64,000 bases of DNA from an uncultured SAR86 cluster bacterium. GTDB taxonomy: Bacteria > Pseudomonadota > Gammaproteobacteria > Magnimaribacterales > D2472. Positions within the stretch are counted from its first letter, which is position 1, and each line of letters opens with the position of its first letter. The position numbers and the translations under genes are program-made. The DNA lies in contig CACNUQ010000004.1 in the NCBI GenBank assembly GCA_902623685.1, positions 25,590-89,589 on the forward strand, in the 5' to 3' direction. The notes below the pieces were generated by a model that was not told where the DNA came from, did no database searches, and saw nothing but the letters and a program-made list of their open reading frames with translations. Shown piece by piece: positions 39,375-48,933 of this stretch.

Positions 39375-39774
39375 AAAAAACCGTCTTTGGAAATTTTTTA
39401 TTATTCTTATTTTGTCTGCAGGTGGAATTTCATTAATTCTTTTTTCTCTAAATTCAAAATTAGATCTTTTCTATACTCCATCTGAAATGTTTGAGGCAGA
39501 CATCAAACCAGGCTATCGAATAAAATTAGGTGGAATGGTAAAGACAGGCTCAATAATAAGAAATGGAACAAAGATCAAATTTATTGCTACAGATTTTGTT
39601 AAAGAAGTGCCAGTCATTTTTGATGGCGTTCCTCCAGACTTATTTAAAGAAGATAGTGGGGTAGTAGTTTTAGGATATTTTCTTGATGGAATGTTTGAAG
39701 CAGAAGAAATTTTTGCTAAACATGATGAAAATTATATGCCCCCAGCGCTATCAATTGAGGAGAAAGAAACATGA
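39361..39774 (+). CDS. ccmE: Cytochrome c-type biogenesis heme chaperone CcmE
   Basis: N-terminal membrane anchor, OB-fold-like region, and the heme-binding H-x-x-x-Y motif (AKHDENYMPP). Confidence 0.9.
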   Translation: MLQARKNRLWKFFIILILSAGGISLILFSLNSKLDLFYTPSEMFEADIKPGYRIKLGGMVKTGSIIRNGTKIKFIATDFVKEVPVIFDGVPPDLFKEDSGVVVLGYFLDGMFEAEEIFAKHDENYMPPALSIEEKET

Positions 39775-41669
39775 TAGGTGAGTTATCACATTTTTTGTCT
39801 TTGTCAGCTGTTGTTATATTTTGTTTAATCTTAATTTTTAATTCCATTTTCTTTTTTGGCAAGATTCATCCTAATCAACTAAGTCTTTCATTGAGAATGT
39901 TCAATCAAGCGTGCTCGCTGATTTTTATTTCCTTTGGAATATTTGTATATCTCTCAATAAATGATGATTTTTCTATTGCATATATAGCAAGTCACTCTAA
40001 CTCTCAATTACCAATTTTTTATAAAATTAGCTCAATTTGGAGTGCCCATGAGGGATCAATGTTCCTATGGATAGTTTTTTTAACTGCTTGGAGCTTACTC
40101 TTTATAAATTCTCTTCATCATGATCATCCCTTAAAAAGAAAAACTTTACTTATGTTAAGTTTGATAATTCTGGGCTTTTTATTATTTTTGCTATTAACAT
40201 CAAATCCATTTGAAAGGATACTGCCCTTTGGCGCGATTGAGGGTGCAGACATAAATCCAGTTTTGCAGGATCCAGCCCTAGCAATACATCCGCCAATGTT
40301 GTATTTAGGATATGTAGGATTTGTAATTTCCTTTAGTTTTATTAGCGCATATCTTTTTCATGGAAATTTCGAATTAGAATGGGAGAAAGATATTAAGGAC
40401 TGGTCTTTGGTTGCATGGATTTTTTTAACCATTGGAATAACTTTAGGAAGTTGGTGGGCATACTATGAGCTTGGATGGGGAGGGTATTGGTTTTGGGATC
40501 CTGTTGAAAATGTTGCATTGATGCCGTGGCTTGCTGCTACAGCCTTTATGCACTCATTGTATGCTTCTTCAAAATCAAGCGTTTTAAAAACTTGGACTAT
40601 GTTTTTAGGAATCTTAATTTTTGCTTTAAGCCTTTTCGGAGCTTTTATTGTTAGATCAGGAATAATTGACAGTGTACATTCATTTGCAAATGATCCTCAA
40701 AGAGGCTTATACCTCTTAATTTTCTCCGGCTTGATTACATTATTAGCATTGGGGATTTTCTCATACAGACTTCCATCTTTGAATGTATCAAGATATATAG
40801 TATCGGGCTCAAAAGAATCATATCTTTCTATGAACAACATTCTCATGATTACGAGCATTTTTTCTATTTTTCTTGGGGTAACATATCCGCTGATTATCGA
40901 AGCGCTAAATGGAGAAAAAGTAAGTATCGGACCTCCTTATTACAATACAATTTTTGCTCCATTAATTCTTATTGCCTCAATATTTATTATGGCTTCTGTA
41001 GATTCTTTATGGCAACGCTCTAAACCAATAAAAAGCGTTGCCTTAACAATATTTATTCCTTTAATGCTATCAATTATATTTATTTATATTGTCTGGCATG
41101 TAACAGCAATTTTTTCAATTCTCCCATACATTGGAATTTTTTCTGGATTACTGATTCTTTTTAGTTATTTGTATAGAATATTTAGCAATTTCCTCTCTAA
41201 AAAGTTCATTAATACAGGAAGCGCTATAGCACATATAGGTTTGGGGCTATTATTTTTAGCAGTTTCTTTGAATAGTATCTTAAGTTATGAAAAAAACTTG
41301 AATCTAGCACCTGGCGAGTCTATACAAATAAACCAATCTATTAAAGAATTCTCATTTGACGACATAAAAGTCTTGAAAGCCTCAAATCACGATGTGATTT
41401 CTGTTGAAGTATCTTTAGTTCAAGATGGAAAAAATATTTCTCTCAATCCTCAAAAAAGAAAATATTCTACGAGGGGTCAAATCACTACAGAATCATCTAT
41501 CCATGCCTCTGTTCTAAAAGATACATATCTAACAATTGGTGATCAACTAGAAAATGGGAGCTGGACTTTCGCCTTAAAAATTAATTATTTTATAAAATGG
41601 ATTTGGTTTTCTGCTTCTTTAATGGTTTTGGGCATGCTTATTACAATTTTTAAAAAGAAAGTAACATGA
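39771..41669 (+). CDS. ccmF: Cytochrome c heme lyase subunit CcmF
   Basis: 632-aa polytopic ORF with WWD-type motif WGGYWFWDPVEN and conserved His-containing loops. Confidence 0.9.
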   Translation: MIGELSHFLSLSAVVIFCLILIFNSIFFFGKIHPNQLSLSLRMFNQACSLIFISFGIFVYLSINDDFSIAYIASHSNSQLPIFYKISSIWSAHEGSMFLWIVFLTAWSLLFINSLHHDHPLKRKTLLMLSLIILGFLLFLLLTSNPFERILPFGAIEGADINPVLQDPALAIHPPMLYLGYVGFVISFSFISAYLFHGNFELEWEKDIKDWSLVAWIFLTIGITLGSWWAYYELGWGGYWFWDPVENVALMPWLAATAFMHSLYASSKSSVLKTWTMFLGILIFALSLFGAFIVRSGIIDSVHSFANDPQRGLYLLIFSGLITLLALGIFSYRLPSLNVSRYIVSGSKESYLSMNNILMITSIFSIFLGVTYPLIIEALNGEKVSIGPPYYNTIFAPLILIASIFIMASVDSLWQRSKPIKSVALTIFIPLMLSIIFIYIVWHVTAIFSILPYIGIFSGLLILFSYLYRIFSNFLSKKFINTGSAIAHIGLGLLFLAVSLNSILSYEKNLNLAPGESIQINQSIKEFSFDDIKVLKASNHDVISVEVSLVQDGKNISLNPQKRKYSTRGQITTESSIHASVLKDTYLTIGDQLENGSWTFALKINYFIKWIWFSASLMVLGMLITIFKKKVT

Positions 41670-42184
41670 ATAAGTCTTTAAGGTTTTTAATAGTTCTAGT
41701 GCCCATTATGATTTTTGCTTTTTTTGCTAAAGTACTTATACAGGATGATGATAAAGTTCTAAGATTTGATGCCAAAATTTTTCCCTCATTTCAATTAAAT
41801 GACCTTGATGGAAATCCAGTTAATTATGAATCTTTAAATGGAATCAAGTTAGTAAATGTTTGGGCAAGTTGGTGCATTACATGTCTTGTTGAACACCCAT
41901 ATTTAACCAAGCTATCGGATGAAAATGTTCAAATAGTTGGCTTGAATTATAAAGACTCAGACAACAAAGCGAGTGAATGGCTGCAAAAGCATGGAAATCC
42001 ATATGTTTTTTCGATATATGATCCAAGAGGAGATTTAGCCTTTGATCTAGGGGTAACTGGAGCTCCTGAATCTTATTTATTAATCGATAATCAGGTGGTA
42101 GCAAGCATTCAGGGTGAAATGACTCCAAAAAAATGGGAAACAATTTTTTATCCTCTAATTAATCAAGCTCGTAATAACAAATGA
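41666..42184 (+). CDS. ccmG: Thiol:disulfide interchange protein CcmG/DsbE
   Basis: Membrane anchor plus thioredoxin fold with WASWCITC (C-x-x-C) and GVTGAPE. Confidence 0.9.
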   Translation: MNKSLRFLIVLVPIMIFAFFAKVLIQDDDKVLRFDAKIFPSFQLNDLDGNPVNYESLNGIKLVNVWASWCITCLVEHPYLTKLSDENVQIVGLNYKDSDNKASEWLQKHGNPYVFSIYDPRGDLAFDLGVTGAPESYLLIDNQVVASIQGEMTPKKWETIFYPLINQARNNK

Positions 42185-42564
42185 TAAAGATAAATTTTTT
42201 CTTGTTAGCTTCTTTTTTTGTTTTCTCTTCATTCTGTTTTGCAGAAATAGTTTATCAATTTAATGACCCTGTTCAGGAAAAAAGATTTTATTCATTAATC
42301 TCAGAAATTAGATGCCCAAAATGTACTAGTGGCAGTATCGCTAGCTCTGATGCCCCAGTATCAAGAGATTTAAAAAATAAGGTATATGAGCTTGTGATTG
42401 AAGGCTCATCAGATGTTGAAATAAAAAATTATGTATCAGATAGGTTTGGTAATTTTTCAGATTATAGGCCCCCGTTAGAAGGTGCAAATTATATCCTTTG
42501 GTTATCACCCTTTATTTTTTTCTTTCTAATCGCAGCAATCTTTTTTTTCAAACGAAGAGTTTAA
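42181..42564 (+). CDS. ccmH: Cytochrome c-type biogenesis protein CcmH
   Basis: Signal sequence, LISEIRCPKC (R-C-x-x-C) motif, C-terminal TM helix. Confidence 0.85.
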   Translation: MIKINFFLLASFFVFSSFCFAEIVYQFNDPVQEKRFYSLISEIRCPKCTSGSIASSDAPVSRDLKNKVYELVIEGSSDVEIKNYVSDRFGNFSDYRPPLEGANYILWLSPFIFFFLIAAIFFFKRRV

Positions 42565-43352
42565 TGCTATTTATTATTGCTTCTACAATAATTATATCAT
42601 TGCCTGTAATTGCCTATTTACTTAACCCTTTATCCAATCAAAAATCACTTATTTTTTTGGTTACCATTTTAGTGTTTGGGGGATTTGTTTTAAATTTTAT
42701 TTCTAAAAACCCATTCATAGGTTCTTGGGCTCAAGCTACTCAATCTGAATTAATGCTGAGAACTATTTCTCGCGATGAAGAGGTTGATAAGCTTCTTTTA
42801 AATCAATATATTTTTAGTAATACGTCAGAAGAGCAATCTTTTTTAATTGGCACTCAATTTTTTTATAAAGCCCTGGAGGCACAATCATTTATTTCGGCAG
42901 AAAGTATATTAAAATATTTAAATGTAGAGTTTGTATCCGAGAATTTTCAGATTCCTATTTTTAATCTTTTGGCAGATTTAAGAGATGAAAAATATCCTGA
43001 AATTGCAAATTCAAATTTGCTTATCAACATTGAAAATCCCACTAATTGCAATATGCAGTTATTACAGTTGGGCGTGTCAATACCAAATGGACCAGGAGTC
43101 AACATTGCCTCAAAAGAGCTTTTGTCTCCAAATATTGATGTGCCTATAAAGCTGGATAAATCTAATTCGATGGTAAGAGGCTTTGATATTGCTTCTGCCT
43201 TTATTCAGCAAGAAGTCATCAAGGTTAAGGCTTTAGCTGAATGTAATAAATTTACTTATGAAGCATTTAAGTCGATAGATTTAAAGTATTCGCAAGATAA
43301 CCAAGAGGAGCTATTTTTTTATACTGATGAATGGTTAAAAAAGGAACAATAG
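42564..43352 (+). CDS. ccmI: CcmI-like cytochrome c biogenesis accessory protein (assigned mainly by position)
   Basis: ATG overlapping the ccmH stop (TAATG). Two N-terminal TM helices then a helical soluble domain. Last gene of the ccm operon. No strong motif seen. Confidence 0.45.
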   Translation: MLFIIASTIIISLPVIAYLLNPLSNQKSLIFLVTILVFGGFVLNFISKNPFIGSWAQATQSELMLRTISRDEEVDKLLLNQYIFSNTSEEQSFLIGTQFFYKALEAQSFISAESILKYLNVEFVSENFQIPIFNLLADLRDEKYPEIANSNLLINIENPTNCNMQLLQLGVSIPNGPGVNIASKELLSPNIDVPIKLDKSNSMVRGFDIASAFIQQEVIKVKALAECNKFTYEAFKSIDLKYSQDNQEELFFYTDEWLKKEQ

Positions 43353-43378: not shown

Positions 43379-45577
43379 ATGCAGCTTAAACACATTAAAC
43401 TGGCTGGATTCAAAAGTTTCGTGGATCCCACGAGGATATCCTTCCCTACAAATATGGTTGCTGTTGTCGGTCCTAATGGCTGTGGGAAATCTAACGTTAT
43501 TGATGCTGTTCGCTGGGTTTTAGGAGAGCTATCTGCTAAGAACTTGCGTGGTGATTCTATGTCAGATGTTATTTTTAATGGCTCAGACTTAAGAAAGCCC
43601 TCTGGCCAATGTAGCATTGAACTTCTTTTTGATAACTCAATGGGTAAATTGGGTGGTGAATACGCAAAATATAACGAAATATCTATTAAGAGATTGATGA
43701 CAAGGGACGGACAGTCAAATTATTCAATCAATAATACTTTATGCAGAAGAAAAGATGTTCAAGACATTTTTCTTGGAACTGGCCTTGGTCCCAGAAGTTA
43801 TGCAATTATCGAGCAGGGGATGGTTTCTAAAATTGTAAGTGCTAAACCTGAAGAAATGAGAGTGTTTATTGAGGAGGCAGCTGGAATCTCAAAATACAAA
43901 GAAAGAAGAAAAGAAACAGAACAAAGAATTAAAAAAACTAAAGAAAACCTTTCAAGGGTAAAAGATATTAGAGATGAAATTAAGAGATTAATTAATAGAT
44001 TGCAAAACCAAGCTAAGGCTGCCGAAAAATATAAAAAACTACAAATCGAGGAGAAGGAATTAAAGTTAAATATTTCAATTTTAAACACGTTAAGCGCTAA
44101 AGCTAAAAAAGATTCATTAAGTTCAAAGATTTCCAAACTTGATAATCAGATTACTGTGAAGTCTGCTGAGGTCGATACTCACGAGACTTCCATTGACCAA
44201 ATTAAAACAGAGCATTCTTCTGTTTTATCTGCTTTCGAAGACGCACAGAAAAACTTTTATACCATTGGTTCAGAAATTGCTCGTCACGAAACGAATCTTC
44301 AAAATATTAATAAGGCAATTACAGGGTATGAAGAGGATCTTTCAAAAGTAAAAGATAGATATGCCGAGGCACGGCATAATGAATCTAGCTTGGAGAACAT
44401 CAGCCCTAAAGAAAAAGCAATGAAATTGCTTGAAAATATTTTAGAGAGCCTAAAAGGTTTTGGATCGGCGGCTGACTCTATTAGTAATAAAGCCCATGAG
44501 TTAAAAGATTTATTAACAAGCATTTTAAAAATTACTTCAGCACAATCTAAAAATATAACCAATGAATATTTACATAGGCAGAATGAAATTTCTGAGCAAT
44601 TAAGCCAAGCAAGAGAAAACAAGCTCAAAGCAGAAAACGACCTAACAGATTTGGTAGAAAAGAGTTCTAAAGCAGAAGCTGAGCTAAATTCAATTCGTCA
44701 AAAACAATCGCTTGTTGATGCTTCTATTCAAGATGTTGAAAATAAAAAATCTATTGCTGCTTTAGACCTAAGATCTCTCGAAGAAAAATTAAATAATCTA
44801 AAACTGGATTTGAGAACATTTGAGGTCAACTTGGAAAATGCATCACAAACCTTGAAGAAGGCCGGAGTCAGTGTTTCTGAGCTTAATGCTGAAGATTATG
44901 AAGAAATGAATCTTTTAGATTTAGAATCATCTTTGGCATCAACTCAATCCTCTATAATATCTTTGGGAGCTATTAACTTAGCGGCACCGGATGAAATTGA
45001 AGAAGAGTCAAAACGAATAGATGAGCTTGATTCTCAATTAGAAGATTTGAATCAAGCTTTAGATAAACTGCAAAGCGCAATTAAAAAAATAGATGTTGAG
45101 TCCAAGATGAAATTTGATGAGAGCTTTAATTCAGTGAATGAAAAAATACAAGAAATATTTCCTAAACTTTTTGGTGGCGGTAAAGCTGCATTGCAATTAA
45201 TAGATGGTGATTCATTTAATTCAGGCATAACGCTTGCTGCGCAACCTCCTGGTAAAAAAAATGCAACTATCTCTCAACTATCAGGTGGAGAGAAAGCTAT
45301 GACGGCGCTTTCTTTAGTATTTGCGTTATTTGAGTTAAATCCAGCCCCCTTTTGTATGTTGGATGAGGTGGACGCACCTTTAGATGACATAAATGCTTCA
45401 AGGTTTGTAGCCATGGTTGAAGAGATGTCTGATAGGGTTCAATTTATATTTATTACCCACAATAAAATTTCTATGGAAAAGAGTGATCATTTGATGGGTA
45501 TCACAATGCAGGAGGCTGGAGTTTCTAGGGTTGTGTCAGTGGATGTAAAAGAGGCGCTGAAGTTAGCTGCTTCATAG
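43379..45577 (+). CDS. smc: SMC chromosome-condensation ATPase, unusually short (732 aa), no recognisable hinge
   Basis: N-terminal head MQLKHIKLAGFKSF...GPNGCGKSNVIDAVRWVLGE. C-terminal head with LSGGEKAMTALSLVFALF and Walker B CMLDEVDAPLD. The middle is heptad-like and K/E/L/S-rich. Confidence 0.85.
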   Translation: MQLKHIKLAGFKSFVDPTRISFPTNMVAVVGPNGCGKSNVIDAVRWVLGELSAKNLRGDSMSDVIFNGSDLRKPSGQCSIELLFDNSMGKLGGEYAKYNEISIKRLMTRDGQSNYSINNTLCRRKDVQDIFLGTGLGPRSYAIIEQGMVSKIVSAKPEEMRVFIEEAAGISKYKERRKETEQRIKKTKENLSRVKDIRDEIKRLINRLQNQAKAAEKYKKLQIEEKELKLNISILNTLSAKAKKDSLSSKISKLDNQITVKSAEVDTHETSIDQIKTEHSSVLSAFEDAQKNFYTIGSEIARHETNLQNINKAITGYEEDLSKVKDRYAEARHNESSLENISPKEKAMKLLENILESLKGFGSAADSISNKAHELKDLLTSILKITSAQSKNITNEYLHRQNEISEQLSQARENKLKAENDLTDLVEKSSKAEAELNSIRQKQSLVDASIQDVENKKSIAALDLRSLEEKLNNLKLDLRTFEVNLENASQTLKKAGVSVSELNAEDYEEMNLLDLESSLASTQSSIISLGAINLAAPDEIEEESKRIDELDSQLEDLNQALDKLQSAIKKIDVESKMKFDESFNSVNEKIQEIFPKLFGGGKAALQLIDGDSFNSGITLAAQPPGKKNATISQLSGGEKAMTALSLVFALFELNPAPFCMLDEVDAPLDDINASRFVAMVEEMSDRVQFIFITHNKISMEKSDHLMGITMQEAGVSRVVSVDVKEALKLAAS

Positions 45578-45582
45578 CATGC

Positions 45583-48933
<3,351 letters not shown>

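Follow-up and report, generated by a model that had tools for sequence, protein, structure and literature searches.

A hingeless, short-armed Smc orthologue with a modular arm in SAR86 bacteria

Introduction

Does a bacterial Smc protein need a hinge at the far end of its arm, and what determines how long that arm is? The question is raised by a gene located in a 64,000-nucleotide stretch of DNA (the window, in which positions are counted below) from an uncultured SAR86 cluster bacterium of the order Magnimaribacterales (assembly GCA_902623685.1, contig CACNUQ010000004.1, positions 25,590 to 89,589 of the forward strand). The gene, smc (43379-45577), encodes a protein of 732 amino acids with both halves of an SMC ATPase head and a short central part. 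The hinge and an arm of ca. 50 nm are treated as defining and nearly universal features of SMC complexes, and models of DNA entry, rod formation and loop extrusion assign jobs to both of them. SAR86 bacteria are among the commonest bacteria of the surface ocean, and the order has a cultured member.

A reading of this DNA made from the sequence alone (the sequence-only reading) had proposed that the gene encodes a naturally hinge-less, short-armed SMC. We have followed up this proposal by profile and structure searches, comparisons of orthologous loci, estimates of selection and phylogenetic analysis of arm segments. The explanation that best accounts for the results overall, to which we assign a probability of roughly 0.6, is that the protein is a functional Smc orthologue with a modular history that acts as an ATP-driven SMC dimer. 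Every gene and protein segment given below with window positions lies on the plus strand.

Results

The 732-residue protein is an SMC with an intact head

The open reading frame (ORF) is intact, as had been claimed: it begins with ATG and continues for 732 codons to a stop codon at 45575-45577. The Pfam family SMC_N spans residues 3-716 of the product, and the TIGR02168 model (SMC_prok_B, 1181 positions) recognizes it with 824.3 bits against a cutoff of 567.35. The alignment to this model consists of two separate stretches that skip the middle of the model, the first of which places residues 2-367 on model positions 1-365. In a sequence search of the PDB, only heads were matched, the best being the head of Bacillus subtilis Smc (5xg3, E 1.6e-106).

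The motifs that had been quoted from the protein are all present: FKSF at residues 11-14, GPNGCGKSN at 31-39, WVLGE at 46-50, LGAINLAAPDE at 529-539, LSGGEKA at 634-640 and MLDEVDAPLD at 660-669; the central stretch quoted alongside them is found at residues 352-379. The ATPase motifs GPNGCGKS (31-38), Q146, LSGGEK (634-639), LDEVD (661-665), APLD (666-669) and H694 are invariant across 47 SMCs. The N-terminal ATPase head half (residues 1-170, positions 43379-43888) carries Walker A and the Q-loop with Q146 and is delimited by these motifs, by an AlphaFold2 (AF2) model and by a ratio of nonsynonymous to synonymous substitution rates (dN/dS) of 0.01. The C-terminal neck helix and head half (residues 541-732, positions 44999-45574) carries LSGGEKA, MLDEVD, the D-loop APLD and H694, with dN/dS of 0.01-0.07. 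The head is ca. 52% identical to that of full-length gammaproteobacterial Smc, and the neck and joint are as well conserved as the head.

Models of other proteins with related heads all fell below their cutoffs: the best Rad50 model, NF003034, gave 75.8 bits against 700, the RecN model TIGR00634 gave 41.4 against 407.85, the ASRP model NF045487 gave 73.6 against 300 and the Rkd4/arcadin-4 model NF053563 gave 65 against 860. MukB families were absent from the Pfam and NCBIfam matches of the protein, and an mre11/sbcD neighbour was not seen at the smc locus.

Public records name these proteins otherwise. In NCBI, the 732- and 995-residue members of the group described below (P0021, P0050, P0080 and others; P and L numbers denote proteins and loci of our comparison set) are called "AAA family ATPase" or "recombination protein RecF", and the 810-residue class (P0281, P0282) is called "chromosome segregation SMC family protein". 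The Smc of crown SAR86 is mis- or under-annotated in public databases.

The gene is a positional orthologue of smc

The placement of the gene in an smc-zipA-ligA string was confirmed, with zipA at 45583-46191 and ligA at 46188-48344. The order ccm-smc-zipA-ligA is kept in every locus encoding a hingeless SMC that we examined, whether the protein has 732, 995, 736 (P0186) or 810 (P0132) residues. The 995-residue relatives are 81-84% identical to the 732-residue form in the parts common to both, and their locus is fully syntenic. Of 31 loci from elsewhere in gammaproteobacteria, 28 have ligA 4.2-4.8 kb downstream of a full-length smc, measured from start to start, and in Zooshikella ccmF/H are located upstream of a full-length smc as well. 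This synteny and spacing identify the gene as the positional orthologue of smc.

In a neighbour-joining tree built from heads only, all hingeless proteins form one clade (100/100 bootstraps), from which the 810- and 736-residue forms branch first. The lengths within the clade are fixed at 732/736, 810 or 995 residues. The length of 732 is kept exactly down to 63% identity, and the abundant 810-residue class has exactly 810 residues from 100% down to 68% identity. A protein of 990 residues (P0381), encoded on one 6.3-kb contig, is an 810-class hingeless SMC fused to ZipA_C; it represents either a read-through or frameshift over the smc-zipA junction or a real fusion. We conclude that SAR86 has, in the 732-residue protein, its functional positional orthologue of bacterial Smc.

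The hinge is absent

The sequence-only reading had set the protein against bacterial SMCs of ca. 1150-1200 residues, a figure in good agreement with the lengths of the 150 best-matching representatives from a set of 1.84 billion proteins, nearly all of which have 1140-1220 residues. In full-length relatives (1162-1173 residues), the hinge family SMC_hinge (PF06470) was detected by Pfam at E 1e-8 to 1e-11; it was not found in the 732-residue protein even at E<=1, and the other hingeless proteins were likewise negative. In addition, the full-length relatives were used to make a hinge profile, which was aligned by hhalign with the central regions of the hingeless proteins; held-out hinges and a canonical arm segment served as controls. 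The probability of a hinge was 0.4% for the 732-residue class, 1.2% for the 995-residue class and 0.1% for both the 810- and 736-residue classes. The canonical arm segment gave 3.0%, and the held-out hinges, together with the proteins P0148 and P0199, gave 99.5-100% (E 1e-22 to 1e-47).

P0148 (990 residues) and P0199 (1003 residues) are short-armed proteins of gammaproteobacterial type that lie outside the hingeless clade and bear a hinge (probability 99.9-100%; PF06470 is detected in both, likewise at E 1e-8 to 1e-11). They are natural cases of a shorter arm-length mode.

BLASTP against the full-length relatives shows what is missing. Residues 1-340 of the query align with residues 1-340 of the canonical SMC, and residues ca. 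383/400-731 align with ca. 819/835-1172, so that ca. 480 central residues of the canonical protein are absent and a ca. 55-residue, proline-kinked helical hairpin stands in their place. This apex (residues 341-395, positions 44399-44563), delimited by the AF2 model, BLAST, the hinge profile and dN/dS of 0.14-0.19, has no BLAST match to canonical SMC. On the two strands, the deletion endpoints appear to be about equally far from the head, as would follow from a single in-register deletion.

The predicted fold is a short antiparallel arm with a helical tip

The protein was modelled with AF2 from a 47-sequence alignment (mean pLDDT, the per-residue confidence score, 81). In the model, the N-terminal head is a beta/alpha domain with pLDDT of 80-90, followed by a helix at residues 170-339, a low-confidence kink at 339-343 (NISP), a helix at 344-358 and a three-residue turn at 359-361 (GFG). 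The return strand is a helix at residues 362-494, a broken, joint-like region at 495-535 that ends in LGAINLAAPDE, and a helix at 536-598 that enters the beta/alpha head. As can be seen, the tip consists of helix, kink, helix, turn and helix only. With a tip devoid of a globular domain, a negative Pfam search and a probability of 0.4% by hhalign, the earlier statement that the protein has no recognisable hinge is upheld. Foldseek found its best PDB match in 5xei, the Pyrococcus Smc head with coiled coil and joint (E 1.5e-33, TM score 0.70 on the target).

The antiparallel arm has ca. 189-190 helical residues per strand and a length of ca. 28 nm, a bit over half of the canonical arm (ca. 344 residues). 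Its N-terminal strand (residues 171-340, positions 43889-44398) comprises the neck (171-220) and then an arm module, and is defined by the AF2 helix 170-339 and by collinearity with residues 1-340 of canonical SMC. The C-terminal strand (residues 396-528, positions 44564-44962) follows the AF2 helix 362-494 and then broken helices at 504-507 and 512-528. It is closed by the joint loop LGAINLAAPDEI (residues 529-540, positions 44963-44998), which is invariant among the SAR86 orthologues compared and corresponds to the canonical consensus RLGAINLAAIDE.

Across the clade, the apex retains the patterns [ST]P.E.A and L..IL.IA..QS, and the turn is variable, its glycines not being conserved. A Rad50-like zinc hook was considered for the tip and rejected, since the arm contains no cysteine: CxxC is present in 0 of 27 hingeless proteins, and the cysteines of the query are located only at residues 35, 78, 122 and 659.

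The gene is real and under purifying selection

The short length could have a trivial origin, namely an assembly collapse or the pseudogene remnant of a full-length smc. The window by itself does not exclude a collapsed repeat, and the internal repeats of the 995-residue relatives (see below) could in principle mis-assemble; one long-read copy of the gene, moreover, has a premature stop. However, the identical 732-residue protein is encoded on four contigs from independent NCBI and JGI samples, namely the NCBI single-cell assembly GCA_902621425.1 (a single-cell amplified genome of the GORG-Tropics type) and JGI metagenomes. A search of 5.8 billion proteins retrieved dozens of 732-residue clusters with 90-94% identity from ENA, NCBI, JGI, MGnify and Logan, one of which has 269 members. 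Homologues from marine metagenomes number in the thousands, with clusters of 132-331 members. In addition, ca. 20 GTDB SAR86 species representatives encode exactly 732 residues, including the original SAR86A scaffold at only 63% identity. The repeat copies of the 995-residue proteins are only 41-53% identical at the protein level, and are therefore too diverged for assembly collapse.

The dN/dS ratio, calculated by the Nei-Gojobori method against the closest unsaturated orthologue, is ca. 0.05 for the whole gene. It is 0.01 for the heads, 0.04-0.10 for the arm strands and 0.14-0.19 for the apex, and the joint loop shows zero change. With such constraint, and with sister genomes that likewise encode hingeless proteins, the copy in the window is neither an outlier nor a pseudogene; the identical protein on four contigs and the dozens of independent clusters dispose of a collapsed assembly segment. 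We consider a trivial origin so improbable that it may be set aside. The proposal of a naturally hinge-less, short-armed SMC is thus supported: a bona fide hinge domain, a collapsed assembly segment and full-length orthologues in sister genomes were each looked for, and none was found.

The long-read copy with the premature stop (L025, 6001-8199; metagenome-assembled genome LRMED-352, JBJLIA010000039.1) is interrupted after codon 393. A tblastn alignment nevertheless covers residues 1-732 at 85% identity, and the stop is probably a frameshift error, not the mark of a true pseudogene.

The arm is built of modules that were duplicated and lost

An alignment of the 732- and 995-residue proteins reveals two insertions in the longer protein, each of which is a tandem copy of the adjacent segment. 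On the N-terminal strand of the 995-residue protein, residues ca. 225-340 are repeated at ca. 345-460 (41-53% identity, E 2e-30 to 4e-34); on the C-terminal strand, residues ca. 517-659 are repeated at ca. 661-802 (46-51% identity, E 1e-37 to 6e-45), and both C-terminal copies end in xINLAAP[DE]E. The repeats were shown by segment-against-segment BLAST; whole-protein self-BLAST gave the identity match only. The module measures 120 residues on the N-terminal strand and 143 on the C-terminal strand, where it includes a second joint. In the AF2 model of a 995-residue protein (pLDDT 75), the N-terminal helix runs unbroken for 286 residues, the apex is like that of the 732-residue protein, and the return strand is interrupted at two places by identical joint-like breaks. 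Its arm of ca. 309 residues, ca. 46 nm long, is close to canonical.

The 732-residue protein has one module on each strand. Its N-terminal module of 120 residues (221-340, positions 44039-44398) is orthologous to the head-proximal copy N1 of the 995-residue forms, and its C-terminal module of 143 residues (396-538, positions 44564-44992), made up of the C-terminal arm strand and the joint loop, is orthologous to the proximal copy C2. When arm lengths are estimated as in Burmann et al., by halving the protein length less ca. 323 head residues, values of ca. 204, 243 and 336 residues are obtained for the 732-, 810- and 995-residue classes, respectively. The modes of natural prokaryotic SMC arms are 163, 238 and 341 residues (PMC5344682).

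One might suppose that the 995-residue form is a canonical Smc minus its hinge, since 1165 less 170 is ca. 995. This was rejected: N2 and C1, the distal copies, find their matches in N1 and C2 (E 1e-30 to 6e-45), and have none in the outer arm of canonical Smc.

The direction of change was read from trees of the repeat units. The distal copies of two separate 995-residue lineages cluster together (N2 in 200/200 and C1 in 198/200 replicates), and the proximal copies, among which fall the single copies of all 732-residue proteins, track the species tree. With the equivalent segments of canonical Smc, P0186 and P0132 as the root, the crown units form one clade (288/300 and 283/300). The grouping of distal copies and the crown-unit clade place the duplication after the loss of the hinge and before the crown lineages split. 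On this phylogenetic evidence, the 732-residue form is shown to derive from a 995-residue hingeless ancestor by the loss, on at least two occasions, of exactly the distal module from both strands, the apex being retained. Purifying selection still acts on the distal modules (omega ca. 0.07, with dS near saturation), but their rate of evolution is ca. twice that of the proximal ones, which fits their dispensability.

The opposite polarity, with 732 residues as the ancestral state and 995 residues reached by duplication in two SAR86 lineages independently, would agree with the single-copy state of the early-branching P0186 (736 residues) and with the occurrence of 732-residue forms on several branches of the head tree. 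The rooted tree of C-terminal units also nests the distal clade within the proximal group, the clade of proximal plus single units being recovered in only 41/300 replicates. This polarity is nonetheless quite improbable. N2 and C1 of one 995-residue lineage each join their counterparts in the other lineage in preference to the proximal copies of the same protein (with the values given above, and 275/300 for C1 in the rooted tree), both 995-residue lineages share the exact length and unit boundaries, and parsimony strongly favours the repeated loss of a single repeat period over two independent pairs of duplications that yield one architecture.

The history, in which the 732-residue form is derived, thus comprises three steps. 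In the SAR86 stem, one central block of ca. 480 residues, including the outer arm on both strands and the hinge, was lost between endpoints roughly opposite one another in the coiled coil, giving rise to forms of 736-810 residues. In the crown ancestor, the arm module was duplicated on both strands, leading to 995 residues and an arm of ca. 46 nm. Finally, the outer module was lost precisely from both strands, at least twice, to give the 732-residue protein. We hold the identity, the architecture and the evolutionary history of the hingeless SAR86 Smc with high confidence.

Neighbouring genes

Directly upstream of smc are located ccmF, ccmG, ccmH and a ccmI-like gene (39771-43352), recognized by NCBIfam and Pfam matches. 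The last of these, the ORF that separates ccmH from smc (42498-43352), is matched by neither Pfam nor NCBIfam in the window. In the public record it has 262 residues (L001, 9186-9974), so the listed 284-residue form with a TTG start probably begins too early; the counterpart at L087 has a faint match to TPR_CcmH_CycH. The gene is probably a divergent ccmI.

Downstream, zipA encodes a short form of 202 residues whose match to TIGR02205 is confined to the C-terminal domain (model positions 147-282 of 284, 37.8 bits, below the cutoff of 119.65); PF04354 (ZipA_C) is found in the syntenic loci. The shortened zipA is the second reduced cell-cycle protein of the same gene string. The ligA gene encodes an NAD-dependent DNA ligase (NF005932, 812 bits).

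The G+C content of the window is ca. 35%. A positive GC skew extends over ca. 50 kb (window 1-52000), where the plus strand carries nearly all predicted genes; the skew becomes negative at ca. 52-56 kb, where several genes are on the minus strand.

Discussion

How the protein may work

Neck and joint are the regions of canonical Smc that contact the kleisin and ParB. Since the catalytic residues, the neck and the joint are conserved in the 732-residue protein, ATP-driven head engagement and DNA clamping at the heads would be expected. That each class holds its exact length speaks for a need to keep register between the two strands, and probably also between both arms of a dimer, as is the case in SMCs that form a rod. 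We therefore propose, with chances that we put a little short of even, that the protein is still an ATP-driven SMC dimer acting on the chromosome. Two heads would sandwich ATP and clamp DNA, and the arms would co-align as a rod. The protomers would be joined by their arms and/or apex hairpins, with a kleisin (ScpA) bridge in addition if the genome encodes one. The sole indispensable job of the hinge, joining the two arms at the far end, would then be done by a simpler element, or would not be needed.

A number of observations weigh against this explanation. The apex is the least constrained segment of the protein, its turn is not conserved and its hydrophobicity is not raised, all of which speaks against a dedicated dimerisation module there; the idea of the apex as a conserved dimerisation domain, which we had considered, is weakened for the same reasons. 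With B. subtilis ScpA and ScpB probes, scpA and scpB were not found in the 64-kb window or in the ca. 14-kb SAR86 loci, which amount to a small fraction of the genome. Hidden Markov models made from gammaproteobacterial scpAB (contaminated by overlapping-frame ORFs) likewise gave no match in SAR86 sequence. The B. subtilis probes do detect scpAB at five non-SAR86 gammaproteobacterial loci, with E 1e-24 to 1e-41. A literature search for SAR86 together with ScpA, ScpB, SMC or their Pfam and TIGRFAM identifiers returned nothing, and the paper on the SAR86 isolate does not mention SMC (PMC11582366).

The arm itself also fits imperfectly. At ca. 204 residues, the arm of the 732-residue form falls between the modes of 163 and 238 residues and below the window of 253-267 residues that is functional in engineered B. 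subtilis Smc, and the module step of 120/143 residues differs from the ca. 99-residue period reported for B. subtilis. As for the history, the trees are neighbour-joining trees of short and partly saturated segments, the number of independent losses (two or three) hinges on the position of L019, and the monophyly of the 995-residue group L026-L031 has only 69% support.

Outside SAR86, scpA and scpB are located directly upstream of a full-length smc at L045, L051, L055, L058 and L078 (ca. 2.0-4.2 kb of the locus, minus strand), which belong to Wenzhouxiangellaceae, Lysobacterales and relatives.

The protein may alternatively form neither a closed SMC-kleisin ring nor loops by extrusion, and may instead be an ATP-dependent head-dimer clamp or bridge on DNA with free arm tips. 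Its behaviour would then be nearer to that of RecN, a hook-less Rad50-like protein or the archaeal SMC-related proteins, and its role would be reduced or different, for example in repair or local bridging within a streamlined cell of very small size. The hinge, the zinc hook and a conserved hydrophobic apex surface are all absent, the apex is the part under the weakest constraint, the arm length has been flexible in evolution (732, 810 and 995 residues), and the distal module, itself under weak constraint, was lost more than once. A reduced role would also agree with SAR86 genomes of 1.05-1.66 Mb that lack 29-52 gammaproteobacterial marker genes (PMC11582366), and with the weak NCBIfam similarity to archaeal hinge-less SMC-related proteins (ASRP 73.6 bits, Rkd4 65 bits). 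On the other hand, the gene occupies the orthologous smc locus, the neck and joint are conserved like the head, the class lengths are exact down to 63-69% identity, which implies a strict geometric constraint on paired arms, the 995-residue form restores a near-canonical arm length, and the RecN, Rad50 and ASRP models are far below their cutoffs. We regard a clamp with free tips as unlikely, yet as an alternative to be taken seriously.

Comparison with known systems

The SAR86 protein resembles the canonical Smc of Smc-ScpAB (B. subtilis type) in the full set of head motifs, the neck, the joint LGAINLAAxDE, the antiparallel arm and the common gammaproteobacterial locus. It differs in having no hinge, ca. 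480 fewer residues, ca. 190 instead of ca. 344 residues per strand, and a helical hairpin for a tip. Burmann et al. (2017, PMC5344682) showed that the hinge of B. subtilis Smc is replaceable by the Rad50 zinc hook, and that the protein works only at discrete arm lengths. These engineered proteins, Mini-Smc and Smc(Zh), demonstrate that removal of the native hinge and shortening of the arms are compatible with function in the laboratory, and the SAR86 lengths are also discrete and tightly held. However, the engineered proteins kept a dimeriser, either a hinge or the Rad50 zinc hook, whereas the SAR86 protein has neither. The SAR86 length step is a module of 120/143 residues including the joint, whereas that of Mini-Smc is a superhelical period of ca. 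91-99 residues. The survey of natural arm lengths placed arms by detecting both a head and a hinge (PMC5344682), and hingeless proteins were therefore outside its scope.

A cluster of "hinge-less SMC" proteins has been described from Tara OM-RGC as cluster 9, which is small in size, very abundant, monophyletic and devoid of CxxC; it is present in GORG-Tropics single-cell genomes that have no regular SMC alongside (PMC12153180, Environ Microbiome 2025). It was assigned to the class Actinomycetes or to an unknown lineage near Actinobacteria, SAR86 is never mentioned, and genomic context, orthology, arm modules, length classes and the taxonomy of the single-cell genomes are not reported (PMC12153180). 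Compared by description only, cluster 9 shares with the SAR86 protein an SMC head with coiled coil, the absence of both hinge and CxxC, and oceanic abundance; by the same descriptions it differs in its actinobacterial assignment, the host here being a gammaproteobacterium. The NCBI taxonomy places Ca. Actinomarinales within the class Actinomycetes, so cluster 9 may have arisen independently. Or else the 995-residue SAR86 form may have passed the 80%-coverage filter used for cluster 9, in which case the taxonomy of the cluster would be wrong.

The archaeal proteins ASRP, arcadin-4 and Rkd4 likewise have an SMC-derived head, a shorter coiled coil and no hinge, and their similarity to the SAR86 protein, weak as it is, extends over the whole length. 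They are, however, paralogues found alongside or instead of Smc, whereas the SAR86 protein is the positional orthologue of a bacterial Smc. Rad50/SbcC and RecN have in common with it an ABC-type head, a fold-back coiled coil and the lack of an SMC hinge, and in size it is close to Rad50 and larger than RecN. In contrast to these proteins, it has neither CxxC nor any cysteine in the arm, and its head is nearest to Smc in both sequence and structure.

Significance

A paper of 2025 had already put forward the general concept of a hinge-less SMC in the ocean (PMC12153180). What appears to be new is the host, SAR86, together with the orthology, the existence of discrete length classes, and the matched duplication of modules followed by their repeated loss. 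The result supplies a host and a genomic context for a class of proteins that was published without one.

In its strongest form, our reading is that a globally abundant, free-living bacterial order runs its chromosome with a hingeless Smc, and that an arm module consisting of a joint and a ca. 120-residue rod has been added and removed in register on both strands. The arm would have been halved, restored to canonical length by duplication and halved again at least twice. We see this as close to an even bet, leaning slightly to the negative. If it is true, the hinge would be dispensable for core SMC function in nature, arm length would be tunable, perhaps in relation to the size of the cell or nucleoid, and dimerisation would proceed by a mechanism not yet described. 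If cluster 9 is truly actinobacterial, the hinge would have been lost independently in two streamlined marine lineages.

The SAR86 protein is a natural counterpart of the B. subtilis experiments: a strongly selected orthologue with no hinge and three fixed arm lengths, which passed from 995 to 732 residues by one matched module. Two questions thereby become directly testable, namely, what is the minimum that an SMC requires at its arm tip, and what determines the length of the arm.

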